A DNA stretch of 11,715 nucleotides from a virus (lineage: Duplodnaviria > Heunggongvirae > Uroviricota > Caudoviricetes): IMG/VR virus record IMGVR_UViG_2529292829_000009, one strand, 5' to 3'. The translations under genes and the position numbers were made by a program. This document shows, one piece after another, positions 1-11,428 of the stretch. The first letter of the stretch is position 1; the number at the start of each line of letters is the position of its first letter. Under the pieces are notes generated by a model, which saw only the letters and a list, made by a program, of their open reading frames with translations, was not told where the DNA came from and did no database searches.

Positions 1-240
1 ACAGATACTGAGGCACAGCATAACGCCGCAGTAGAAGCAGCAGAAGCACAGCGCCAGTCACTGATTGATGCAGCAATGGCTTCCATTAGTCTGATTCAGC
101 TGAAATTACAGGCCGGACGGAAACTGACTCAGGCAGAAACAACCCGACTTAACGCCGTGCTGGATTACATTGACGCGGTGACGGCAACAGATACCAGCAC
201 CGCGCCGGATGTCATCTGGCCTGAACTGCCGGAGGCGTAG
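1..240 (+). CDS. Tail fibre assembly protein (Tfa/gpG-like), C-terminal fragment; 5' end outside window
   Basis: Open frame 1 from position 1 to TAG at 238..240; translation ends ...[30 protein letters not shown], the C-terminal motif typical of phage Tfa chaperones; same orientation as the downstream tail operon. Confidence 0.7.
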
Positions 241-640
241 GCCATTCAATATCGGGTGCTGTTGAAGTATCAACACGCATCAGCAGCACACGGTATTTCT
301 TCCATTCGGTGAGAGTTGAAGTTTCTTCATCAGTTGCGATATCAGCATCAACAGCATCCTGACGCCAGGATATTTCACTGTCAGCTTTTTCCCGTAATTG
401 GGATTTTTTAACTTCAGCAATAGCTATTAATTCCTTTTTGGTCGGCTGAGGAATATCTATCAGTGCTGGTTTTCCATTCAGTGTTCCAATCTGTTTTCCT
501 GGTGGAATATCCATAAATAACTTTTTATGTTCTTCCTCACTGACTATTACACCATCATCAGGCCACAGACCTGATGCCTCAAATTTTTCTTTCTCCGATA
601 TGGGGAAAAAGCCATTTGCTTTAGCGCTCCATACGTACAT
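212..640 (-). CDS. Tail fibre assembly protein (Tfa), alternate cassette inside the invertible segment
   Basis: 142-aa ORF ending ...[39 protein letters not shown], matching the conserved Tfa C-terminus; convergent with and overlapping the + strand tfa fragment; start ATG 1 nt downstream of the stop of the 642..977 ORF. Confidence 0.8.
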
Positions 641-641
641 A

Positions 642-949
642 TCAATACCCCACCGCTATAATGTCCACATTAAATCCCCCGGGACCTGCCTGCCAGATGC
701 TGGCCCCTGTTAATGATTTTGTTTGATGAACAACCGCCACATTTGCTGGCGATAGTGTTTCAGTTGTTACAGTACCGATATCATTCCAGTTAATTGAGAT
801 GGAATAGTTCGTTGTTGTAAACGACCGGGGGAAAGTTATGTGTCTTGCATTGGTGCCAACAGGAAATCCAAGATAAACACGCTGAATTATCATTCCTCCA
901 GGTAACATAACCCAGTTAGCACCTTCTCCAAAACCAACGTTTAAGAAAA
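642..949 (-). CDS. Tail fibre protein C-terminal variable cassette (promoterless, no genuine start of its own; would be fused to the constant 5' part of the tail-fibre gene only after inversion)
   Basis: Minus-strand frame open from the crossover site down to TGA at 642..644, immediately followed by tfa; the ORF-track start at 977 lies outside the crossover site and is probably not a real start; arrangement mirrors Mu Sv'-U' and P1 cassettes. Confidence 0.5.
924..949. other. 26-bp hix/gix-like crossover site for the DNA invertase (TTCTCCAAAACC-AA-CGTTTAAGAAAA)
   Basis: Imperfect dyad of two 12-bp half-sites around a central AA; by my recollection of hixL (TTCTTGAAAACCAAGGTTTTTGATAA) about 20 of 26 positions match; lies inside the 5' end of the silent fibre cassette and about 55 bp upstream of the invertase start. 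Confidence 0.65.
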
Positions 950-1004
950 TGCAGAGGTAACAGCTAACTGGCATCATCTCCGGTTTTTATTCAGGGGGAT
1001 GCTC

Positions 1005-1571
1005 ATGCTTATTGGCTATGTACGCGTGTCAACAAATGACCAGAACACCGATTTGCAACGTAATGCACTGAACTGCGCGGGATGTGAGCGAATTTTTGAG
1101 GATAAAATCAGTGGCACTAAGTCCGACAGACCGGGGCTGAAAAAACTGCTCAGGACACTATCGGCAGGTGACACACTGGTTGTCTGGAAGCTGGACAGGT
1201 TGGGGCGCAGTATGCGGCATCTTGTTACGCTGATAGAAGAGTTGCGCCAGCGTGGCGTGAATTTCCGAAGCCTGACTGACAGTATTGATACCAGTACCCC
1301 AATGGGCCGTTTCTTTTTTCATGTCATGGGTGCCCTGGCTGAAATGGAACGCGAACTGATAGTTGAACGTACCAGGGCAGGGCTGGCTGCAGCTCGTGCC
1401 AAAGGCAGAGTAGGTGGGCGTCGTCCTAAGTTGACCACCGAACAGTGGGCACAGATTGGACGTTTACTCGAGGCCGGAGAATCAAGACAGCGTATTGCAC
1501 TGATTTTTGATGTGGGCGTTTCTACCATTTATAGAAAATTTCCGGTGAATGAGAGCAATGAATCGCCCTGA
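1005..1571 (+). CDS. pin: Serine DNA invertase, Hin/Gin/Cin/Pin (Din) family
   Basis: Translation from ATG 1005 begins MLIGYVRVSTNDQ (resolvase/invertase N-terminus with the catalytic Ser) and carries a C-terminal helix-turn-helix; GGGGG Shine-Dalgarno at 994..998; closely resembles e14 Pin as I remember it. The ORF-track start at 999 adds two residues and is less likely. Confidence 0.9.
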   Translation: MLIGYVRVSTNDQNTDLQRNALNCAGCERIFEDKISGTKSDRPGLKKLLRTLSAGDTLVVWKLDRLGRSMRHLVTLIEELRQRGVNFRSLTDSIDTSTPMGRFFFHVMGALAEMERELIVERTRAGLAAARAKGRVGGRRPKLTTEQWAQIGRLLEAGESRQRIALIFDVGVSTIYRKFPVNESNESP

Positions 1572-1608
1572 GTCAGCATTATTTTGATTTTTCCTGTAAG
1601 CGGACAAA

Positions 1609-1635
1609 TACCGTTATTTTGTATGAATAACGGTA
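1609..1635. repeat. Perfect 10-bp inverted repeat (TACCGTTATT, 7-nt spacer, AATAACGGTA) in the pin-FI intergenic region
   Basis: Read directly from the sequence: 1609..1618 is the reverse complement of 1626..1635. Confidence 0.6.
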
Positions 1636-1637
1636 CA
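1620..1637 (+). promoter_or_regulatory. Candidate Ogr-binding element (TGT-N12-ACA) of the late promoter for the FI-FII-E-T-U-D operon
   Basis: TGT at 1620..1622 and ACA at 1635..1637 separated by 12 nt, centred about 85 bp upstream of the FI ATG, consistent with a -55-centred activator site plus a short leader as in P2/P4 late promoters. Confidence 0.5.
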
Positions 1638-1713
1638 ACTGCGCTTAGCTGTTTGTCAGGCACAATCACTTCAACATAGGGCGAAGCCTAATCCAATCAG
1701 GAGGTTCGCCACT

Positions 1714-2886
1714 ATGGCTCAGGATTACCACCACGGGGTGCGCGTTGTTGAAGTCAACGAAGGCCCCCGATCCATTACCACGGTGAGCACCGCCATCGTG
1801 GGTATGGTCTGCACGGGCGATGATGCCGATGCAAAAATGTTTCCTCTTAATAAACCCGTGCTGATCACTGATGTGCTGACTGCCAGCGGTAAAGCGGGTG
1901 AGTCCGGTACTCTGGCCCGTTCGCTGGATGCCATCGCTGACCAGGCAAAACCCGTGACCGTTGTTGTGCGTGTGCCGCAGGGTGAAACGGAAGACGAAAC
2001 CACGACCAATATCATCGGCGCTGTGACTGCTGAAGGTAAAAAAACAGGCATGAAAGCCCTGCTAGCTGCCCAGTCACAGCTCGGCGTTAAACCGCGCATT
2101 CTCGGCGTGCCAGGTCACGATAACAAAGCCGTTGCGACTGAGTTGCTGAGCGTGGCTCAAAGCCTGCGTGGGTTTGCCTACCTGTCAGCATATGGCTGCA
2201 AGACGGTACAGGAGGCGATCACTTACCGTGAAAACTTCAGCCAGCGCGAAGGAATGCTGATCTGGCCTGACTTTACTGGCTGGGACACGGTGCTGAATGC
2301 CGAAGCAACGGCATATGCCACCGCCCGTGCGCTTGGTCTGCGCTCCAAAATTGATGAGCAGACCGGGTGGCACAAAAGCCTGTCCAACGTGGGCGTGAAC
2401 GGTGTCACCGGAATTTCTGCAGATGTGTTCTGGGATCTGCAGGACCCGGCAACCGATGCGGGACTGCTTAACCAGAACGACGTCACCACGCTTATCCGCA
2501 AAGACGGTTTCCGCTTCTGGGGTTCCCGCTGCCTGAGTGATGACCCGCTCTTTGCCTTCGAAAACTACACCCGCACGGCGCAGGTACTGATGGACACGAT
2601 GGCAGAAGCGCATATGTGGGCGGTGGACAAACCGCTGAACCCGTCGCTGGCCCGCGACATTATCGAAGGTATCCGCGCCAAAATGCGCAGCCTGGTCAGT
2701 CAGGGCTATCTCATTGGTGGTGATTGCTGGCTGGATGAGTCGGTGAACGACAAAGACACGCTGAAAGCCGGAAAACTCCCCATCGACTATGACTACACGC
2801 CAGTGCCGCCACTTGAAAATCTGATGCTGCGTCAGCGCATCACCGATCAGTACCTGGTGAATTTTGCCAGCCAGGTCAGCGCGTAA
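1714..2886 (+). CDS. FI: Tail sheath protein (P2 gpFI family)
   Basis: 390 aa; N-terminus DYHHGV...STAIVGMVC and C-terminal ...[28 protein letters not shown] match P2 FI as I remember it; AGGAGG Shine-Dalgarno 9 nt upstream. Confidence 0.92.
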
Positions 2887-2895
2887 GGGGACAAC

Positions 2896-3411
2896 ATGGC
2901 TTTACCACGCAAATTAAAACACCTGAACCTGTTTAACGACGGGAACAACTGGCAGGGGATCGTTGAATCGCTGACGCTGCCGAAATTCACCCGCAAATAT
3001 GAGAAGTATCGCGGCGGCGGAATGCCGGGTGCAGTGGATGTGGATCTGGGGCTTGATGACAGTGCGCTGGACACAGAATTTTCCATTGGTGGTACTGAAC
3101 TGCTGCTGTTTAAACAGATGGGCAAAGCCACGGTGGATGGCATCCAGTTGCGCTTCACCGGCTCTATCCAGCGTGACGATACCGGAGAAGTGCAGGCCGT
3201 GGAGCTTGTGGTGCGTGGGCGTCACAAAGAAGTGGATTCCGGCGAGTGGAAGACGGGCGAAAGCAACACCACCAAAGTGACCAGTACCAACAGCTACGCG
3301 AAGCTGACTATCAATGGTGAGGTGCTCTATGAAGTGGACCTTATCAACATGGTGGAAATTGTGGACGGTGTGGACCTGATGGAAGCGCACCGCAACGCAC
3401 TCGGCCTCTGA
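2896..3411 (+). CDS. FII: Tail tube protein (P2 gpFII family)
   Basis: 171 aa starting MALPRKLKHLNLFNDG..., typical of P2 FII; AAGGGGA Shine-Dalgarno; immediately downstream of FI. Confidence 0.92.
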   Translation: MALPRKLKHLNLFNDGNNWQGIVESLTLPKFTRKYEKYRGGGMPGAVDVDLGLDDSALDTEFSIGGTELLLFKQMGKATVDGIQLRFTGSIQRDDTGEVQAVELVVRGRHKEVDSGEWKTGESNTTKVTSTNSYAKLTINGEVLYEVDLINMVEIVDGVDLMEAHRNALGL

Positions 3412-3422
3412 TGTATCTGAAC

Positions 3423-3440
3423 GGCGCGGGATTCCGCGCC
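3423..3440 (+). other. GC-rich hairpin (GGCGCGG-GATT-CCGCGCC) between FII and E
   Basis: Perfect 7-bp stem with 4-nt loop, 12 nt after the FII stop; no following U-tract, so not a classical intrinsic terminator. Confidence 0.5.
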
Positions 3441-3768: not shown

Positions 3769-3902
3769 CGGTTGACGATCTGGTGGCAGATATCGCCACC
3801 ATTTTTCACTGGCCGCCATCCGTTACTGACGTTATGCCGCTGACCGAAGTGCTGGAATGGCGGTATAAAGCGATTCAGAGAAGCAGGGCCAACGATGAGT
3901 GA
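3466..3902 (+). CDS. gpE+E' fusion made by programmed -1 ribosomal frameshift at the slippery site 3723..3729
   Basis: After a -1 slip on TTTTTTG the frame stays open for 57 codons (FVEEVGACRFTDSLTVDD...LEWRYKAIQRSRANDE) to TGA at 3900..3902, overlapping the T start at 3895; same architecture as the P2 E/E' pair. Confidence 0.65.
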
Positions 3903-6900
3903 TAATAACCTGCGCCTGCAGGTCATTCTTAATGCGGTTGACAAACTCCCCCGCCCATTCCGTGCTGCACAGGCCAGTTCGAAAGAGCTGGCTGGCGCAA
4001 TCAGAAACTCCCGTGACGCATTAAAGCAACTCAATCAGGCGGGTAACAGCCTGGAAAAATTTCGCAAGCTGCAGGCAGATAACAAAAAGTTAGGCGACAG
4101 GCTGAACTATGCCAGACAGAAGGCTAATTTGCTTAGCTCTGAGCTGGAAGCGATGGAACAACCATCACAACGGCACCTTGTGGCTTTAGGTCGGCAAACG
4201 CTGGCAGTCCAACGCCTGGAAGAACAACAAAAATATTTGCAGAAGCAAACGGCGCTTGTGCGTGCAGAACTGTACCGGGCGGGAATTTCTGCGAAAGATG
4301 ATGCGGGAGCAACTGCCCGTTTAGCCCGTGAAACATCACGTTATAACCAGGAACTTTCGAAACAGGAGGCACGGCTGAAGCGACTGGGGGAAGCTCAGCG
4401 CAGGATGAATGCGGCGCGTGCCAGTTATGCCCGTTCACTGGAGGTGCGTGATCGTATTGCAGGTGCCGGAGCCACCACCACGGCTGCAGGGCTGGCAATG
4501 GGTGCGCCAGTGATGGCAGCAGTAAAAAGCTATACCAGCATGGAAGATGCCATGAAAGGTGTGGCAAAGCAGGTCAATGGTCTGCGTGATGATAATGGCA
4601 ACCGCACTGCGCGTTTTTACGAAATGCAGGATGCCTTCAAGGCTGCCAGCGAACAGTTGCCGATGGAAAACGGTGCGGTGGACTTCGCTGCACTGGTTGA
4701 AGGTGGTGCGCGCATGAACGTCGCAAACCCTGACGACAGCTGGAAAGACCAGAAACGTGACCTGCTGGCCTTCGCCAGTACGGCAGCAAAGGCGGCAACA
4801 GCCTTTGAGCTGCCAGCGGATGAACTGTCAGAAAGTCTGGGGAAAATCGCCCAGCTCTACAAAATACCTACCCGCAATATTGAACAGCTCGGCGATGCGC
4901 TGAACTATCTGGATGATAACGCCATGTCGAAAGGGGCGGACATCATTGATGTGATGCAACGTCTGGGCGGTGTGGCTGACCGTCTGGATTATCGTAAAGC
5001 GGCGGCGCTGGGTTCCACCTTCCTGACACTGGGAGCTGCGCCGGAGGTTGCAGCCAGTGCAGCAAACGCGATGGTGCGTGAATTATCCATTGCCACCATG
5101 CAGAGCAAGAGTTTCTTTGAAGGGATGAATCTGCTGAAACTCAATCCTGAAGTGATTGAAAAGCAGATGACGAAGGATGCGATGGGAACTATCCAGCGTG
5201 TTCTGGAGAAGGTGAACGCACTACCGCAGGATAAGCGACTGTCTGCCATGACCATGTTGTTTGGTAAAGAGTTTGGCGATGACGCGGCGAAACTGGCAAA
5301 CAACCTGCCGGAACTACAGCGCCAGCTAAAACTGACAGCGGGCAATGATGCGCTCGGTTCCATGCAGAAAGAATCCGACATCAACAAGGACTCACTTTCT
5401 GCTCAGTGGTTGCTGGTTAAAACCGGAGCGCAGAATACCTTCAGCAGCCTGGGCGAAACGCTGCGCCAGCCGCTGATGGATATTCTGTACACGGTGAAAA
5501 GCGTTACGGGAGCGTTGCGTCGCTGGGTGGAAGCTAACCCGGAACTGACGGGCACACTGATGAAAGTAGCCGCTATTGTGGCTGCGGTTACCGTAGGCCT
5601 CGGCACTTTGGCTGTGGCGCTGGCTGCAGTGCTGGGGCCGCTGGCAGTCATCCGTCTGGGGTTCTCTGTGCTGGGTATCAAAACGTTACCTTCCGTTACG
5701 GCAGCAGTAACTCGAACCAGCAGCGCGTTGTCCTGGCTGGCTGGCGCACCACTGGCACTGCTGCGACGCGGGCTTGCTTCATCGGGCAACGCCGCAGGTT
5801 TACTTACTGCGCCGTTGTCGTCTTTGCGCCGCACGGCATCACTGACGGGAAATGTCCTGAAAACTGTAGCAGGTGCGCCGGTTGCACTTTTGCGGTCTGG
5901 ATTATCCGGTTTACGTGCTGTTGCTGTGATGTTTATGAATCCTCTGGCGGTACTGCGCGGTGGACTGGCCGCCGCAGGCACGGTGCTGCGAGTACTGGCA
6001 TCTGGTCCACTGGCGATGCTGCGCGTTGCCCTGTATGCCGTATCTGGTCTGTTAGGTGCTCTGCTCAGTCCGATAGCTCTTGTGGTTACTGCACTGGCGG
6101 GCGTGGCGCTGGTTGTCTGGAAATACTGGCAACCCATCACCGCATTTCTTGGTGGCGTGGTGGAAGGATTCAAAGCTGCGGCAGGTCCAGTCAGTGCAGC
6201 ATTCGAACCGCTTAAGCCCGTGTTCCAGTGGATTGGCGACAAAGTACAGGCGTTGTGGGGCTGGTTTACTGATCTGCTGACGCCCGTTAAGTCGACCTCT
6301 GCCGAACTGCAGAGTGCAGCGGCAATGGGGCGGCGATTCGGGGAGGCACTGGCGGAAGGGCTGAATATGGTCATGCATCCGCTGGACTCCCTGAAATCCG
6401 GCGTTTCCTGGTTGCTGGAGAAACTCGGCGTTGTCAGTAAAGAGGCCGCAAAGGCGAAACTACCGGAAAGTGTGACGCGTCAGCAACCTGCGACGGTGAA
6501 TACAGACGGTAAAGTGATGATGCCATCGGGTGGTTTTCCGTCATGGGGATATGGCTTTGCGGGGATGTATGACAGCGGCGGCTATATCCCGCGCGGGCAG
6601 TTTGGCATCGTCGGTGAAAACGGGCCGGAAATTGTTAACGGCCCGGCAAACGTGACCAGCCGGAGAAATACAGCTGCACTGGCTGCCGTTGTTGCCGGAA
6701 TGATGGGCGTTGCTGCCGCGCCTGCAGAGCTTCCACCGTTGCATCCTTTGGCACTTCCCGCGAAAGGCGGCGAAGCGATGGTGAGTCGTGCAGCCACTGT
6801 GCCGCCCGTTCAACGGATTGAGGCACCGACGCAGATCATCATTCAGACGCAGCCAGGACAAAGTGCGCAGGATATTGCGCGGGAGGTGGCACGCCAGCTT

Positions 6901-6972
6901 GATGAACGTGAACGCAGGCTGAAGGCAAAAGCCAGGAGTAACTACAGCGATCAGGGGGGATACGACGCATGA
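3895..6972 (+). CDS. T: Tail tape measure protein (P2 gpT family)
   Basis: 1025 aa; coiled-coil-rich N-terminal region, hydrophobic Ala/Leu/Gly-rich repeats in the middle, a Gly-rich C-terminal motif (GMYDSGGYIPRGQFGIVGENGPEIVNG); position between E/E' and U. Confidence 0.88.
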   Translation: MSDNNLRLQVILNAVDKLPRPFRAAQASSKELAGAIRNSRDALKQLNQAGNSLEKFRKLQADNKKLGDRLNYARQKANLLSSELEAMEQPSQRHLVALGRQTLAVQRLEEQQKYLQKQTALVRAELYRAGISAKDDAGATARLARETSRYNQELSKQEARLKRLGEAQRRMNAARASYARSLEVRDRIAGAGATTTAAGLAMGAPVMAAVKSYTSMEDAMKGVAKQVNGLRDDNGNRTARFYEMQDAFKAASEQLPMENGAVDFAALVEGGARMNVANPDDSWKDQKRDLLAFASTAAKAATAFELPADELSESLGKIAQLYKIPTRNIEQLGDALNYLDDNAMSKGADIIDVMQRLGGVADRLDYRKAAALGSTFLTLGAAPEVAASAANAMVRELSIATMQSKSFFEGMNLLKLNPEVIEKQMTKDAMGTIQRVLEKVNALPQDKRLSAMTMLFGKEFGDDAAKLANNLPELQRQLKLTAGNDALGSMQKESDINKDSLSAQWLLVKTGAQNTFSSLGETLRQPLMDILYTVKSVTGALRRWVEANPELTGTLMKVAAIVAAVTVGLGTLAVALAAVLGPLAVIRLGFSVLGIKTLPSVTAAVTRTSSALSWLAGAPLALLRRGLASSGNAAGLLTAPLSSLRRTASLTGNVLKTVAGAPVALLRSGLSGLRAVAVMFMNPLAVLRGGLAAAGTVLRVLASGPLAMLRVALYAVSGLLGALLSPIALVVTALAGVALVVWKYWQPITAFLGGVVEGFKAAAGPVSAAFEPLKPVFQWIGDKVQALWGWFTDLLTPVKSTSAELQSAAAMGRRFGEALAEGLNMVMHPLDSLKSGVSWLLEKLGVVSKEAAKAKLPESVTRQQPATVNTDGKVMMPSGGFPSWGYGFAGMYDSGGYIPRGQFGIVGENGPEIVNGPANVTSRRNTAALAAVVAGMMGVAAAPAELPPLHPLALPAKGGEAMVSRAATVPPVQRIEAPTQIIIQTQPGQSAQDIAREVARQLDERERRLKAKARSNYSDQGGYDA

Positions 6973-7454
6973 TGATGGTGCTGGGATTGTATGTGTTTAT
7001 GCTGCGCACCGTGCCGTATCAGGAGCTGCAGTATCAGCGCAGCTGGCGACATGCGGCAAACAGCCGGGTTAACCGACGCCCGTCAACGCAGTTTCTGGGA
7101 CCGGACAACGACATGCTGACGCTTTCTGGTGTTCTTATGCCGGAGGTAACGGGCGGCAGGCTGTCGTTGCTGGCTCTGGAGCAGATGGCAGAACAGGGAA
7201 AAGCATGGCCCCTGATTGAAGGCAGCGGCACGATTTACGGCATGTATGTGATTGAGGGACTGAATCAGACTAAAACGGAGTTTTTCCGCGACGGTATGCC
7301 GCGCCGGATTGAGTTCACCCTGTCGCTCAAACGGGTGGATGAATCCCTGTCCGATATGTTCGGTGATCTCAGTACGCAACTGAATAATCTGCAGGACACG
7401 GCAACATCTGCCTTAAGTGATATCAGTAAAACGGTGGGAGGGCTGCTGTCGTGA
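6969..7454 (+). CDS. U: Tail protein gpU
   Basis: 161 aa; ATG overlaps the T stop (ATGA); GGGGGGA Shine-Dalgarno upstream; conserved position between T and D in P2-like phages. Confidence 0.85.
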   Translation: MMMVLGLYVFMLRTVPYQELQYQRSWRHAANSRVNRRPSTQFLGPDNDMLTLSGVLMPEVTGGRLSLLALEQMAEQGKAWPLIEGSGTIYGMYVIEGLNQTKTEFFRDGMPRRIEFTLSLKRVDESLSDMFGDLSTQLNNLQDTATSALSDISKTVGGLLS

Positions 7455-8551
7455 ATTTCAGCTCTGAACTGCTTAACAAAGGCAACAAAACTCCCGCATT
7501 CAGCATCAGTATTGAGGGCAGGGATATCACTACTGTGCTGGATAACCGTCTGATGAGTCTGACGTTGACGGACAATCGGGGCTTTGACGCGGACCAGCTT
7601 GATCTGGAGCTGGACGACGCCGACGGAAAAATCGTGCTGCCGCGCCGTGGTGCGGTCATTACGCTGGCGCTGGGCTGGAAGGGGCAGCCGCTTTTCCCGA
7701 AAGGGACATTCACGGTGGACGAGATTGAACACACTGGCGCGCCGGACCGCCTGACTATCCGGGCGCGAAGTGCTGATTTTCGGGAAACGCTGAATACCCG
7801 CCGTGAAAAATCGTGGCATAAGACCACCGTCGGGGAAGTGGTGAAGGAAATAGCCGCGCGGCACAAGCTGAAGATGGCACTGGGTAAAGACCTGTCGGAT
7901 AAGCCCGTGGAGCATATAGACCAGACTAATGAGAGTGACGGCAGTTTTCTGATGCGGCTGGCGCGACAGTACGGTGCCATCGCGTCGGTGAAAAATGGCA
8001 ATCTGTTATTCATCCGGCAGGGGCAGGGCAAAAGCGCCACTGGTAAACCTCTGCCAGTGATCACTATCACACGCAAGGACGGCGACAGTCACCGATTTAC
8101 CCTGGCAGATCGCGGAGCCTACACGGGCGTAATTGCCAGCTGGTTGCATACCCGCGAACCTGCGAAGAAAGAAAGCACCACGGTGAAGCGTAAGCGCAGA
8201 ACTAAGAAGCAGAAGAAAGAGCCAGAAGCGAAGCAGGGCGATTATCTGGTGGGTACGGATGAAAACGTGCTGGTACTTAATCGCACTTATGCCAACCGGA
8301 GCAACGCCGAACGAGCGGCGAAAATGCAGTGGGAACGCCTGCAACGCGGCGTTGCGTCATTTTCGCTACAACTGGCAGAAGGGCGGGCAGATCTCTACAC
8401 GGAAATGCCTGTGAAGGTCAGTGGTTTTAAACAGCCGATAGATGATGCGGAATGGACCATTACGACTCTGACACATACCGTCAGCCCGGATAACGGTTTT
8501 ACGACCAGTCTGGAGCTTGAAGTGAGGATTGATGATTTCGAAATGGAATGA
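7451..8551 (+). CDS. D: Late control gene D protein (gpD; VgrG-N-terminus / baseplate-hub-like tail protein)
   Basis: 366 aa; GTG start overlapping the U stop (GTGA) with a GGTGGGAGGG Shine-Dalgarno; last gene of the FETUD operon, immediately before ogr. Confidence 0.85.
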   Translation: MNFSSELLNKGNKTPAFSISIEGRDITTVLDNRLMSLTLTDNRGFDADQLDLELDDADGKIVLPRRGAVITLALGWKGQPLFPKGTFTVDEIEHTGAPDRLTIRARSADFRETLNTRREKSWHKTTVGEVVKEIAARHKLKMALGKDLSDKPVEHIDQTNESDGSFLMRLARQYGAIASVKNGNLLFIRQGQGKSATGKPLPVITITRKDGDSHRFTLADRGAYTGVIASWLHTREPAKKESTTVKRKRRTKKQKKEPEAKQGDYLVGTDENVLVLNRTYANRSNAERAAKMQWERLQRGVASFSLQLAEGRADLYTEMPVKVSGFKQPIDDAEWTITTLTHTVSPDNGFTTSLELEVRIDDFEME

Positions 8552-8641
8552 CTCTTCGCAATGGAGAACTTTTAAGTTTGTAAAATGGAATAATGCGGTA
8601 TCATTGTTGTGAATTTAGCAAAAATGGGGAGAACTCGAAAA

Positions 8642-8860: not shown

Positions 8861-9095
8861 CGCTGCCGCCATTTTGTCGCCATCATTAAAAAACAGTGCT
8901 TCTAACTTCATGATTTTAAAAGGCATAAATTTCAGGCAACAAAAAACCCATCAACCTTGAACCGAAATGGCGGGGGTGATGGGCTCCACAAAATGGGGAC
9001 ATCAAAGAAAAGCAGTGGCACTAATTAAGACTGATGCCCTGCGGAAAAGTTCTGCGGTTGTGCAAAAAAATTTCATTTTCAGGGCAACTTCAGTT
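8861..9095. other. Prophage/host junction region (attR expected here; core not identified)
   Basis: AT-rich 235-bp non-coding gap between the last phage gene (ogr) and the 3' end of host ybjL; in P2 the attachment site lies directly downstream of ogr. Confidence 0.4.
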
Positions 9096-10781
9096 TTATC
9101 CTAATCCTGGCCATACCATGACGATGATTGTCCCTGCCAGCGTCAGCAGGACGTTGGCGATTGCATAGGTGCCCGCATAGCCCAGCGCCGGGATGTTACT
9201 GCGAGCTGTATCACTGATGATCTCCATTGCCGGCGCGCAGGTACGTGCGCCCATCATTGCGCCGAACAACAGCGCGCGGTTCATTCGCAATACATAAGCA
9301 CCGAACAAGAAACAGATAACCACGGGCACCAGACTGACAATCAATCCGGCAATCAACATCTGACCGCCAATCGCGCCCAGGCCGTTATTAATACCGCTAC
9401 CGGCGCTCAGACCAACGCCTGCCATAAACACCATCAAGCCGAACTCTTTCACCATGCTTAATGCACCCTGCGGAATGTAACCGAAGGTCGGGTGGTTAGC
9501 ACGCATAAAGCCCAGCATAATTCCGGCGAATAACAACCCGGCAGCGTTCCCCATGCCGAAACTGAATGTGCTGAACTGGAAGGTGATCATCCCGATCATC
9601 AGCCCAATAACAAAGAAGGCGCAGAATGCCAGCAGGTCAGTGACCTGGCTGTGAATCGAGATAAAGCCGATGCGATCGGCGATGGTTTTTACGCGGCGGG
9701 CATCGCCGCTGACTTGTAAAACGTCACCTTTGTTAAGCACGACGTTGTCATCTATCGGCATCTCAATCTGGCTACGAATGACGCGGTTAAGGAAGCAACC
9801 GTGATCGGTCAACTTCAGTTGTGCGAGACGTTTACCTACAGCGTTATGGTTTTTAACGACCACTTCTTCAGTGACGATACGCATGTCGAGAAGGTCACGA
9901 TCGAAAACTTCTTTACCGTTACGGAAGCTGGGATCGAGTCGGGCATGGGCGTCGGGATAGCCTACCAACGCTATTTCATCGCCCATTTGTAGCACGGCAT
10001 CACCGTCTGGATTTGCCAGAATCCCGTTACGTCGAATACGTTCAATGTAGCAGCCGGTTTGTCGATAAATACCCAGTTCACGCAGATTTTTGCCGTCGGT
10101 CCAGGCCACCAGTTCCGGGCCGACGCGATAGGCGCGGATCACCGGTAAATAAACCTTACGGTTGGCATCAGTGTCCAGGCCACGTTCGCGGGCGATTTGC
10201 TGGGCGCTGGTCTGTAAGTCCTGATGCTGCAATTTCGGCAAGTAACGCGCACCAACAATCAAACTCACCAGACCGATTAAATAGGTTAAGGCATACCCGA
10301 GGCTCAGATTATCCAGTGCCAGTGAGAGCTGCCTGCTTTCCATGCCGGAATGACGCAGTGTATCGCCAGCACCGACCAGAACCGGTGTCGACGTCATAGA
10401 GCCTGCTAACATACCGGCCGTCAGGCCAATATCCCAGCCAAACAGCTTACCTAACCCTAAGGCGATCACCAGCGCACTGCCAACCATCACCAGTGCTAAC
10501 ATTAGGTAATTTTTCCCATCGCGAAAAAAAATGGAAAAAAAGTTCGGTCCGGCTTCGACCCCGACGCAGAAAATAAACAGCATAAAGCCAAGATTAAGCG
10601 CATCGGTGTTAATGCTGAAATGTTGTTGGCCTAATAACAGCGATACGACTAAAACGCCAATGGAATTACCCAGTTGGATCGAACCAAGTCGTAACTTTCC
10701 GAGACATAGCCCAAGCGCGAGGACCACAAATAATAACAGAATGTAATTCCCATTTAACAATTCGGCGACGTTTATATTCAC
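9096..10781 (-). CDS. ybjL: Putative transporter YbjL (AAE/YidE-YbjL family membrane protein with two cytoplasmic TrkA-C/RCK_C domains)
   Basis: 561 aa with hydrophobic N- and C-terminal halves around a soluble central region; GTG start (CAC on + at 10779..10781); matches E. coli YbjL in length and sequence as I remember it, and in its neighbours ybjM and grxA. Confidence 0.9.
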
Positions 10782-11050: not shown

Positions 11051-11428
11051 GTGAAACATAAACAACGTTGGGCGGGGGCAATCTGCTGTTTTGTCCTCTT
11101 CATTGTGGTGTGCCTTTTTCTGGCGACGCACATGAAAGGCGCTTTTCGGGCTGCCGGGCATCCTGAAATCGGCTTGCTATTTTTCATTCTTCCTGGAGCA
11201 GTCGCCAGCTTCTTTTCACAGCGTAGAGAAGTCCTGAAACCTCTGTTTGGCGCAATGCTGGCGGCACCCTGTTCGATGCTCATTATGCGGCTGTTTTTTT
11301 CACCGACGCGCTCATTCTGGCAAGAGCTGGCATGGTTACTAAGCGCGGTGTTCTGGTGTGCGCTGGGGGCACTGTGTTTCTTATTTATCAGTAGTTTGTT
11401 TAAACCACAGCACAGAAAAAATCAGTAA
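11051..11428 (+). CDS. ybjM: Inner membrane protein YbjM
   Basis: 125-aa hydrophobic protein; GTG start preceded by GGAGG at 11041..11045; sits between ybjL and grxA as in E. coli K-12. Confidence 0.85.
   Translation: MKHKQRWAGAICCFVLFIVVCLFLATHMKGAFRAAGHPEIGLLFFILPGAVASFFSQRREVLKPLFGAMLAAPCSMLIMRLFFSPTRSFWQELAWLLSAVFWCALGALCFLFISSLFKPQHRKNQ

Follow-up and report, generated by a model that had tools for sequence, protein, structure and literature searches.

Background

The closest described relatives of the locus reported here are phage segments in which an invertase exchanges the end of a tail fibre. In the G segment of Mu, with its invertase Gin, and the C segment of P1, with Cin, the constant N-terminal part of the fibre lies outside the segment and two opposed pairs, each of a tip and a chaperone, lie inside it; the sites are 26 bp long and an enhancer is located in the 5' end of the invertase gene. 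The same plan is seen or predicted here. Among P2-like phages, inversion of the Fels-2 segment between Salmonella strains LT2 and LT7 has been documented (PMC7953296), and in the P2-like prophages of enteropathogenic E. coli (EPEC) E2348/69, invertase-driven phase variation of the tail-fibre C-terminus was demonstrated when clonal cultures were sequenced and examined by PCR (Goldberg et al. 2014, PMC4272514). A 2024 preprint describes invertases in the Z/fun hotspot. Finally, inversion of the P segment of the E. coli element e14 is reported to yield StfE2, which consists of a leader, MPFACYFFIFINVG, followed by a gp53-like tip and reportedly blocks adsorption of T2 (PMC12529663).

We analysed a window of 11,715 nucleotides (IMG/VR record IMGVR_UViG_2529292829_000009). 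We conclude, with a probability of about 0.88, that its positions 1-1571 are the right-hand half of a known phage DNA flip-switch of the Gin/Pin type, carried by a P2-like prophage of E. coli. The switch is real but ordinary. An initial annotation, made from the sequence alone, had called it a known class of system, and rightly so: precedents exist in Fels-2, in the P2-like EPEC prophages and among the invertases of the Z/fun slot.

Organization of the locus

The following features were identified in and next to the switch.

1..240, + strand: 3' end of tfa, last 79 codons (C-terminal 79 aa), in the expressed orientation (Pfam Caudo_TAP, E 1.4e-20)
212..640, - strand: tfa', alternate tail-fibre-assembly gene, complete, 142 aa (Pfam Caudo_TAP, E 1e-33; PHROG 188, E 1e-54)
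642..935, - strand: Sv', alternate fibre C-terminal cassette encoding a receptor-binding tip, 97 aa plus stop (Pfam Gp53-like_C)
924..949, no strand: right-hand 26-bp site of the pix/hix type, TTCTCCAAAACC AA CGTTTAAGAAAA, crossover core at 936-937 (consensus match)
950..1004, + strand: spacer between site and invertase, with the ribosome-binding site AGGGGG at 993-998 (read directly)
1005..1571, + strand: serine DNA invertase of the Gin/Cin/Pin/Hin/Fin group, 188 aa (Pfam Resolvase, E 2.4e-53, and HTH_7, E 6e-15)
1023..1094, no strand: putative Fis-dependent recombinational enhancer within the invertase gene (homology to the P1 cin enhancer)
1620..1637, + strand: TGT-N12-ACA dyad ahead of FI, where P2 has the activator site of its late promoter pF (read directly)
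1714..2886, + strand: tail sheath gene FI, first gene of the late operon FI-FII-E-E'-T-U-D, which is followed by ogr (Pfam Phage_sheath families)

The five features listed in the initial annotation were all recovered at, or a few bases from, the positions it gave. It had suggested profile searches of the ORFs, and these matched Caudo_TAP, Gp53-like_C and Resolvase plus HTH_7; in NCBIfam, no specific model exceeded its cut-off for any of the four proteins. The two tail-fibre-assembly genes both belong to Caudo_TAP and are convergent, as had been described, with a tail-to-tail overlap of 29 bp. The tfa fragment matches positions 55 to 131 of the 131 positions of the profile, the gene being truncated by the start of the contig. 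For tfa', the closest match among 50,697 phage records was only 57% identical.

The prophage is P2-like (Peduoviridae), resides in E. coli and is integrated beside ybjL; host DNA resumes at about position 8925, adjoining that gene. The genes from FI to ogr match the expected Pfam families, are all full length and follow the order of the P2 record. The switch module ends before the dyad at 1620-1637, which we take to be an Ogr-type site. Measured upstream from the FI start codon (ATG at 1714), the dyad is at 77-94 bp and, in the P2 record, the pF activator site is at 69-97 bp. In the same record, fun(Z) is found immediately upstream of pF/FI. The proposal that the module, lying between tfa and FI, occupies the Z/fun slot of P2 is in agreement with this record, with the order H-G-G'-H'-invertase-FI of Fels-2 and with the 2024 preprint. 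The prophage with the most similar ogr|ybjL junction, in NZ_CP024275, was considered as a proxy and rejected, as the ~9 kb read there passes from the integrase through early and replication genes and contains none for morphogenesis.

When the tape-measure protein was looked up by exact match, only the source contig, AQDU01000089.1, was returned. This contig begins within the invertible segment, one base ahead of the window, and so stops short of the left site, of the constant part of gene H and of the tip that this strain currently expresses. Sequence comparisons were based on two genomes, namely L001, the closest complete relative (98.4% identical), and L005, in which the segment is flipped. 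The full arrangement with two pairs is present in L001, L003 and L005, and the window holds the right pair together with the chaperone of the left pair. Sv' and tfa' are identical to their counterparts in L001.

Recombination site and inversion

A hix-like 26-bp site had been predicted at 924-949. It proved to be unique: it differs from the consensus TTCTCNNAAACCNNGGTTTNNGAGAA at two positions and is the only match in the window at up to three mismatches, and none of 200 shuffled sequences contained any match to the Hin/Gin-type consensus. A partner site with a TT core is present inside gene H in L001 and L005, and also in e14. In L001 the arms are at 11178-11209 and 12918-12949, the left site being inside H. 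At up to four mismatches, the number of sites per locus is exactly two in L001, L005, e14 and Fels-2, and one in the window. On these counts we rejected, for this type of element, a shufflon of three or more sites of the kind present in one EPEC prophage.

If the segment is a switch, inversion should fuse the cassette to the constant part of the fibre, as the initial annotation had proposed. Joining the constant part of H from L001 to the reverse complement of window positions 642-935 gave a frame that stays open to the stop codon (...LLTYLG|FGEGANWV...), and exactly this flipped junction was found in 19 complete E. coli genomes. The arrangement of the window, with the cassette beside the invertase, was found in 82. 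In L005, window positions 1-937 are inverted with 99.1% identity, and their join with H falls precisely on the core dinucleotide. The breakpoint maps to 922-937, and the inner half-sites, including that of the window site, are swapped as reverse complements. Breakpoints in the 2-bp core together with swapped inner half-sites are what reciprocal exchange predicts. L005 shows the mirror arrangement with the same tfa' protein, encoded directly downstream of the fused H gene, and the fused product is annotated as an intact tail protein of 447 aa. Judging from these complete genomes, the segment does invert in this type of element. The reading as a G-segment-type switch is thereby supported, its predicted fusion, breakpoint site and genomic position all having been borne out.

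Genome L002 (CUVET23-RF4) was at first a candidate for a clean flipped example; it was dropped in favour of L005, its assembly being chimeric and palindromic and containing frameshifts. Among seven near-identical dog-clinic isolates, one has the segment assembled as a palindromic chimera. This assembly possibly reflects a mixed culture, as would be expected from reads of both orientations.

The alternate fibre tip

The minus-strand frame 642-949 had been regarded as an alternate fibre C-terminal cassette, and its match to Gp53-like_C is above the cut-off (E 4.3e-6; 27.6 bits compared to 24.9 in Pfam), with a PHROG match to tail fibre at 4e-5; in the 19 flipped genomes it is fused in frame to H. 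The mechanically called ORF reaches an ATG at 977, outside the segment, and the exchangeable part of the cassette stops at the crossover core, 936-937. Among homologues of Sv', the tip is always C-terminal and follows directly after the YLG(F/L)xEG junction. The two tips of the switch are unrelated in sequence, and may recognize different receptors.

By sequence, nothing significant was found for the Sv' tip in phage genomes or in the PDB. Its AF2 model, of moderate confidence (pLDDT 72), gave as best Foldseek matches the C-termini of R1 and R2 pyocin fibres, with probability 1.00, TM-scores normalised to the query (TMq) of 0.53-0.58 and weak E-values (3e-3 at best). These best matches suggest a predicted fold like that of the receptor-binding fibre tip of R-pyocins. 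The Sv' alternate tip is a rare allele confined to E. coli, and of mild novelty.

The invertase and its control region

The gene at 1005-1571 had been assigned to the Hin/Gin/Pin family of serine invertases. Both domains, Resolvase and HTH_7, are present, and the residues R7, S9, D64, R65 and R68 of the intact catalytic set are shared without change by Gin, Cin, PinE and Fin. The protein matches the Gin crystal structure 3UJ3 over residues 1-183 (E 4e-92), and is identical at 98% of positions to the enzyme of L005, 86% to Fin of Fels-2, 85% to PinE, 77% to Cin and 73% to Gin. Translation from 1005 is confirmed by the AGGGGG at 993-998, which ends 6 nt before it, and by an alignment with Gin that begins at residue 1.

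The spacer 950-1004 is a block conserved in e14, Fels-2 and Mu, in which ATGGCAT is invariant, and presumably contains the invertase promoter. A sigma-70 scan for promoters of the invertase and of the minus-strand cassette gave a single match, on the minus strand and downstream of the invertase, so that neither promoter was found. The cassette had been called promoterless; the scan agrees with this, and the absence of a sigma-70-like match on the minus strand is the sole basis for the term.

Window positions 1023-1094 are homologous to nucleotides 19-90 of P1 cin, designated as the enhancer in the P1 record, and are 79% identical to them. Two Fis-like motifs are found within, at 1027-1041 (TGTCAACAAATGACC) and 1075-1089 (GCGCGGGATGTGAGC), with their centres 48 bp apart. 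Their positions agree among the five invertase genes examined, and their distance from the crossover, ~97 bp, is that found in Mu and e14. Of the third codon positions within the motifs, 5 of 10 are invariant, compared to 5 of 32 outside. We infer from these features that Fis may bind the enhancer, through motifs that are degenerate and lie within a strongly conserved coding region.

Proposed mechanism and alternative explanations

In the mechanism that we propose, the invertase would bind two inverted 26-bp sites, the one at 924-949 and one inside gene H upstream of the window. With Fis on the enhancer in the 5' end of the invertase's own gene, both sites would be cut at the 2-bp core (AA/TT) and the ~1.75-1.8 kb between them inverted. 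Since H would be transcribed from outside the segment, each orientation would pair its constant N-terminal part with a different one of the two C-terminal tips, the matching chaperone being placed directly downstream. In the orientation captured here, Sv' and tfa' (642-935 and 212-640) would be the silent pair.

A first alternative is that the module is of the right kind but is a fossil, flipping having ceased in this lysogen, for instance through loss of, or damage to, the left site or H, or owing to a defective prophage. The left half is beyond the contig end, prophages at the same ybjL site can be heavily deleted, as in NZ_CP024275, where the ~9 kb read reaches from the integrase to past the replication gene and lacks morphogenesis genes, and the orientations among the relatives are skewed 82:19. 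However, all the visible parts are intact, namely the catalytic residues of the invertase, the right site, tfa' and Sv'; the invertase is 98% identical to that of the flipped genome, and the late genes from FI to ogr are all full length. We consider this explanation unlikely, and the switch is probably active in the strain of the window.

A second alternative is a role in defence, besides or instead of host-range switching. Here the lysogen would, in the present orientation, produce from ORF 642-977 a protein of 111 aa (short leader and lectin-like tip of the R-pyocin type) that coats or masks a surface receptor in the manner of StfE2. The precedent of StfE2 in e14 (PMC12529663) speaks for it, as does the fact that the ORF is the positional analogue of StfE2, with a leader identical at 13 of 20 residues and a gp53-like C-terminal domain. 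Moreover, the Sv' tip can be aligned with the StfP tip at 28% identity, and the ATG outside the segment has been kept in e14, Fels-2, Mu and the window. Against this, BLASTP found no similarity between the StfP and Sv' tips, no sigma-70-like promoter was found for the ORF on the minus strand, and its ATGs are only 0-3 nt from a GGAG. The codon differences between the leaders of e14 and the window are 1 synonymous and 5 non-synonymous, and the conservation of the leader therefore looks to be at the DNA level (invertase control region and outer half-site) rather than at the protein level. The published effect of StfE2 comes mostly from over-expression and docking (PMC12529663). A defence role thus appears very unlikely; if it were true, an apparently intact P2-like prophage would use its fibre switch also as a phase-variable defence against phages or superinfection, as recently claimed for e14.

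Lastly, the duplicated convergent genes for fibre and chaperone, and the alternative arrangements in other genomes, could stem from homologous recombination of the ordinary kind, or from mosaic exchange among prophages, in place of site-specific inversion. Frequent modular exchange is shown by the last 79 residues of Tfa, 97 to 100% identical among e14, L001 and L005 (the window has 100% identity with Tfa of L001 and 97% with TfaE of e14) with N-terminal halves that differ, and the one Sv' tip occurs on several different fibre backbones. Such an origin is nevertheless extremely improbable, given that the ends of the rearrangement fall on the 2-bp cores of the two 26-bp sites, with half-sites reciprocally exchanged, that the segment in L003 and in L005 lacks any further long inverted repeat at its flanks, and that the adjacent invertase is 73-86% identical to enzymes known for such inversion.

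Implications

The inverting fibre switch raises no new mechanistic question; its consequences are practical. Where annotations of E. coli P2-like prophages place a 'recombinase family protein' beside a 'gp53-like domain-containing protein' and a second 'tail fiber assembly protein', the latter two should be read as the silent half of a switch, and not as independent genes. Such segments also break or scramble assemblies, as illustrated by the contig end inside the segment of the window and by the palindromic chimera of a sibling. A lysogen carrying the switch could release phage with either receptor-binding tip, which bears on host-range prediction and on the engineering of prophage-derived phages or tailocins. 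The Sv'/tfa' pair is absent from all deposited phage genomes, and modestly extends the known set of receptor-binding modules.

Comparison with known systems

The likeness to R-type pyocins concerns the tip only. The C-terminal domain of their fibres, which are related to those of P2 (PDB 6CL5, 6CL6 and 6CT8), is the closest predicted fold to Sv', at 20-24% identity, whereas the sequence-level search of the PDB gave no match. Mu and P1 share the plan of the switch but differ in its contents: their segments measure 3 kb and 4.2 kb, respectively, their S/U cassettes are unrelated to those of the window, and their phage backbones are other ones. The core is TC/GA in gix and TT/AA in cix. In P1, cin lies at the end of the segment opposite the constant part, like the invertase of the window.

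Among P2-like elements, one EPEC locus has three sites and, as a shufflon, yields four variants (PMC4272514), whereas the relatives of the window have exactly two sites. Fels-2, together with the SopE-phi-type Salmonella phages that carry Fin, has both the same layout, H-G-G'(reversed)-H'(reversed)-invertase-FI, and the same genomic slot. The outer left half-site of Fels-2, TTCTCACATACC, is also that of the window-type element. The differences are that the Fels-2 sites have a TC/GA core like gix of Mu, compared to TT/AA in the window type, that its cassettes are much longer (segment of ~2.7 kb) and unrelated in sequence, and that its chaperone G' is only 38% identical to tfa'.

The P-invertible segment of e14 in E. 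coli K-12, with PinE, is located in a defective lambdoid element, whereas the module of the window lies in a P2-type late region (H ... FI). TfaP is only 33% identical to Tfa', and the StfP tip, 28% identical to Sv' in a multiple alignment, shows no similarity to it by BLASTP. In several respects e14 resembles the window: the gene order (stfP-tfaP-tfaE-stfE-pinE) is the same, tfaP and tfaE overlap tail to tail by 29 bp, as do tfa and tfa', and a gp53-like tip is found among the two cassettes of both. The sites are nearly identical with a TT/AA core in both, the right site of e14 differing from 924-949 at two positions and having the same AA core, and the spacing from crossover to enhancer is that of the window.

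Features of the switch region

Two Tfa genes, a minus-strand cassette, a hix-like site and an invertase had been listed in the initial annotation, and all five were recovered by Pfam, PHROGs and a consensus scan.

Features of window 1-1571
1-240, plus strand: Tfa (chaperone), last 79 residues; Pfam Caudo_TAP tail-fibre-assembly, E = 1.4e-20
212-640, minus strand: Tfa', complete, 142 aa; Pfam Caudo_TAP, E = 1e-33
642-977, minus strand: ORF with a Gp53-like_C fibre-tip domain; Pfam E = 4.3e-6, exceeding the Pfam cut-off
924-949: 26-mer recombination site, TTCTCCAAAACC AA CGTTTAAGAAAA; Hin/Gin-type consensus match
1005-1571, plus strand: serine invertase; Pfam Resolvase and HTH_7, E = 2.4e-53
1027-1041 and 1075-1089: putative Fis-like motifs; degenerate consensus match inside a homologue of the Cin enhancer

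The HMM comparison assigned the ORFs to the Tfa, tail-fibre and resolvase/invertase families as proposed, and PHROGs agreed with Pfam (tail fibre assembly, tail fibre and DNA invertase, the last with E = 1e-100); similarity of frame 642..949 to tail-fibre C-termini is seen in both its Gp53-like_C match and its PHROG. With up to 3 mismatches allowed, the site at 924-949 was the sole Hin/Gin-type consensus match in the window, and none was found in 200 shuffled sequences. The invertase start at 1005 is favoured over an ATG at 999, since AGGGGG lies 6 nt upstream of 1005 and the protein started there aligns with Gin from residue 1.

Reconstruction of the invertible segment

The window forms the first 11.7 kb of AQDU01000089.1, a 186-kb contig of the draft NCBI assembly GCA_000355575.2, which starts 1 base before window position 1 (window 1 is contig position 2), within the invertible segment. 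Because of this break, the left partner site and the tip now expressed by the source strain fall outside the window, and activity of the switch in that strain is a prediction. The break coincides exactly with the point where the conserved TfaE-type C-terminus of Tfa (79 residues) begins, and probably results from a repeat shared with another (e14-like) prophage, or from mixed-orientation reads.

At least 80% of window region 1-1720 is covered in 64 complete genomes. In the prophage of E. coli S1-CAM-01-A (98.4% identity over window 1-1720), an intact 501-aa tail-fibre gene H precedes a 197-aa tfa, and the last 79 residues of this Tfa are identical to those of the window. A single long inverted repeat is present, one arm of which (11178-11209) lies within H while the other (12918-12949) corresponds to the window site; the inverted partner that had been expected inside an H-like gene is thus found in a relative. 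This left site reads TTCTCACATACC TT GGTTTGGGAGAA; as inversion requires, its TT core and the right-hand AA core are reverse complements of each other. From core to core, the segment measures 1,746 bp in this prophage and 1,800 bp in that of strain WP8-S17-ESBL-05; its right-hand 937 bp are contained in the window. In the S1-CAM-01-A record (NZ_CP145714.1, 10142-11647), PGAP breaks the intact H ORF into two 'incomplete' pseudogene fragments, which looks like an annotation artefact of the kind provoked by invertible fibre genes.

Evidence for inversion

A junction was constructed by joining the end of the H constant part, at the core, to the reverse complement of window 642-935, the alternate fibre-tip cassette Sv'. 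It forms a single open frame, reading ...GKDVAGLLTYLG up to the core and then the tip ending in ...AVGY and a stop, and three clean complete genomes carry this junction (98-99.7% identity). A shorter junction probe was covered to at least 80% in 19 genomes, including prophages having another H constant part, so that the proposed fusion of the cassette to the constant fibre part after inversion is borne out. The window-type arrangement, with the cassette abutting the invertase, occurs in 82 genomes; both orientations therefore exist.

The annotation of the WP8-S17-ESBL-05 prophage is the exact mirror image of the window arrangement: after a 447-aa H comes the same Tfa' protein, then the other tfa and tip in reverse, and the invertase beyond this reversed pair is 98% identical to that of the window. 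By BLAST, its positions 4311-5247 correspond to window 937-1, inverted (99.1%), and 6097-8606 to window 922-3431, collinear, which places the breakpoint within 922-937. The left inner half-site of S1-CAM-01-A, GGTTTGGGAGAA, is TTCTCCCAAACC on the right in WP8-S17-ESBL-05, and the converse also holds, the inner half-sites being swapped between the two prophages as reverse complements. Such a swap marks a reciprocal exchange at the core rather than homologous recombination.

Six of seven near-identical isolates from one veterinary setting were in the window-like orientation, clean and of almost the same genome size. The segment of the seventh, CUVET23-RF4 (NZ_CM172035.1, 2978-4845), came out of assembly as a near-perfect palindrome riddled with frameshifts, in which each end bears the Sv'-tfa' pair; this is probably an artefact of building a consensus from long reads in mixed orientation.

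Invertase and putative enhancer

The invertase is 86% identical to Fin of Fels-2, 85% to PinE of e14, 77% to Cin of P1 and 73% to Gin of Mu, with R7, S9, D64, R65 and R68 invariant throughout; the Gin crystal structures 3UJ3 and 4M6F match its residues 1-183 (E ~1e-91). According to the P1 record, the Cin enhancer spans nt 19-90 of cin, and the homologous stretch, window 1023-1094, shows 79% identity. In each of the five genes compared, invertase nt 23-37 and 71-85 match a degenerate Fis consensus (K-NN-YR-NN-W-NN-YR-NN-M). The centres of the two motifs are separated by 48 bp, the canonical spacing between the two Fis sites of the Hin, Gin and Cin enhancers, and in the window, as in Mu and e14, ~97 bp separate the first motif from the crossover. 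Third codon positions were invariant in 5 of 10 cases inside the motifs, compared to 5 of 32 outside, a weak sign of possible constraint beyond coding.

A possible role of the invertase-proximal ORF in the lysogen

Inversion of the e14 P segment is reported to make StfE2, a protein that keeps T2 and some other phages from adsorbing and that consists of a 14-residue stfE leader, encoded between the site and pinE, and the gp53-like StfP tip (Kirigo et al., PMC12529663). ORF 642-977, on the minus strand, may likewise encode an StfE2-like protein with a side role in the lysogen. Its product (111 aa) starts at its own ATG outside the segment, which makes it a positional analogue of StfE2, and has a leader identical to the StfE2 N-terminus at 13 of 20 positions, with a gp53-like tip after it; an ATG outside the segment is kept from Mu to e14, and also in Fels-2 (e14 and Fels-2 having a similar leader). 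However, its Shine-Dalgarno spacing is poor, the differences from the e14 leader are mostly non-synonymous, the Sv' and StfP tips share only ~28% identity, and a scan found no promoter-like site on the minus strand. We consider such a role improbable, and it would not displace the host-range interpretation. The description of the cassette as 'promoterless' agrees with the scan, but the StfE2-like reading qualifies the term. PGAP annotates ORF 642-977 as a separate 'gp53-like domain-containing protein'.

Distribution of the cassettes

Turning to the cassettes of the host-range switch, the visible Tfa is of the e14 TfaE type (97% identity across the last 79 residues), and in relatives differing Tfa N-terminal halves and differing Sv tips are joined to this same conserved C-terminus. 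Among 50,697 phage records, Tfa' had no match above 57% identity and Sv' no significant match; the PDB held no sequence match to Sv'. All proteins found for Sv' when 5.8 billion were searched by word index came from E. coli, at 81% identity or more, and just 23 proteins reached E ≤ 1e-3 when 1.84 billion representatives were scanned exhaustively with HMMER. In the full-length homologues whose sequences were read, the Sv' domain forms the extreme C-terminus, in most of them immediately after a YLG(F/L)xEG motif, which the recombination site encodes, and several different fibre backbones occur.

In another P2-like prophage (NZ_CP098178.1, 2757-6081; 373-aa H, invertase annotated at 197 aa), the Sv' tip (98% DNA identity) is fused to a shorter, different H constant part; the tip module thus moves between fibre backbones at the site-encoded junction. 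A 122-aa database protein, P0037, has most of a related fibre-tip domain joined directly to a Tfa-like C-terminus; it is a chimera or pseudogene, and suggests a deletion between tip cassette and chaperone gene.

An AlphaFold model of the Sv' tip, built on ten homologue sequences, is all-beta (pLDDT 72, pTM 0.63). In the PDB it most closely resembles the C-terminal parts of R1 and R2 pyocin fibres, which belong to P2-related tails (Foldseek probability 1.00, TM-score normalised to query 0.53-0.58, identity 20-24%, E-values of at least 3e-3); H-type lectins, Helix pomatia agglutinin and discoidin among them, follow as weaker matches. The matches support a sugar-binding receptor tip, but with a model of moderate confidence and such E-values they are only suggestive. 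The presumably silent Sv'/Tfa' pair, as a rare allele, and its possible StfE2-like role are the only mildly new items.

The prophage and its integration site

Downstream of the switch module, the P2-type late genes FI, FII, E, E', T, U and D are intact and are followed by ogr. The right end of the prophage, ogr then ybjL, lies within window 8861-9096, host DNA being back from ~8925, beside ybjL, ybjM and grxA. This flank is 95-99% identical to essentially all E. coli genomes, and the same ogr-ybjL junction is carried by 1,115 of 5,426 complete genomes. Late genes, junction and flank together identify a P2-like prophage of E. coli at a very common integration site.

A TGT-N12-ACA dyad at window 1620-1637, 77-94 bp upstream of the FI start codon, matches in position the pF activator-binding site annotated in the P2 record; the late promoter thus seems to have been kept on the far side of the invertase gene. 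The tape-measure gene T (3895-6972, plus strand) encodes 1,025 aa, ~210 residues more than P2 gpT (2,448 nt in the P2 record); the exact protein was found in one contig only among those read in the look-up. The best-matching ogr-ybjL junction (99.3%) is that of NZ_CP024275.1 (995500-1004500), where the ~9 kb read run from an integrase through early and replication genes to hypothetical genes, with morphogenesis genes absent. That prophage would then be a remnant left by deletion at this integration site.

Comparison with known systems

Fels-2 has exactly the same layout, H-G-G'(reversed)-H'(reversed)-invertase-FI, and inversion of its fibre genes between LT2 and LT7 has been described (PMC7953296). 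As the initial annotation held, the switch lies between tfa and FI, where P2 carries Z/fun: in the P2 record, fun(Z) is directly upstream of pF/FI. A 2024 preprint on phage hotspots reported that a DNA invertase is often found in the Z/fun hotspot, with adjacent genes inverted (10.1101/2024.10.15.618418), and Goldberg et al., using sequencing and PCR, detected reproducible inversion phase variation in EPEC E2348/69, in two of its P2-like prophages (PMC4272514). Among the classical systems, the e14 P segment comes closest in sequence, with the same gene order and 29-bp tfa overlap and nearly identical sites, the TT/AA core being common to both (e14 inverted repeats as quoted in PMC12529663). 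The interpretation as an invertase-driven fibre switch is supported, and we infer the receptor specificity of its tips. With near-identical, already annotated copies in about a hundred complete genomes, the switch is, as had been stated, an already known one, both its class and its genomic slot having been described before.
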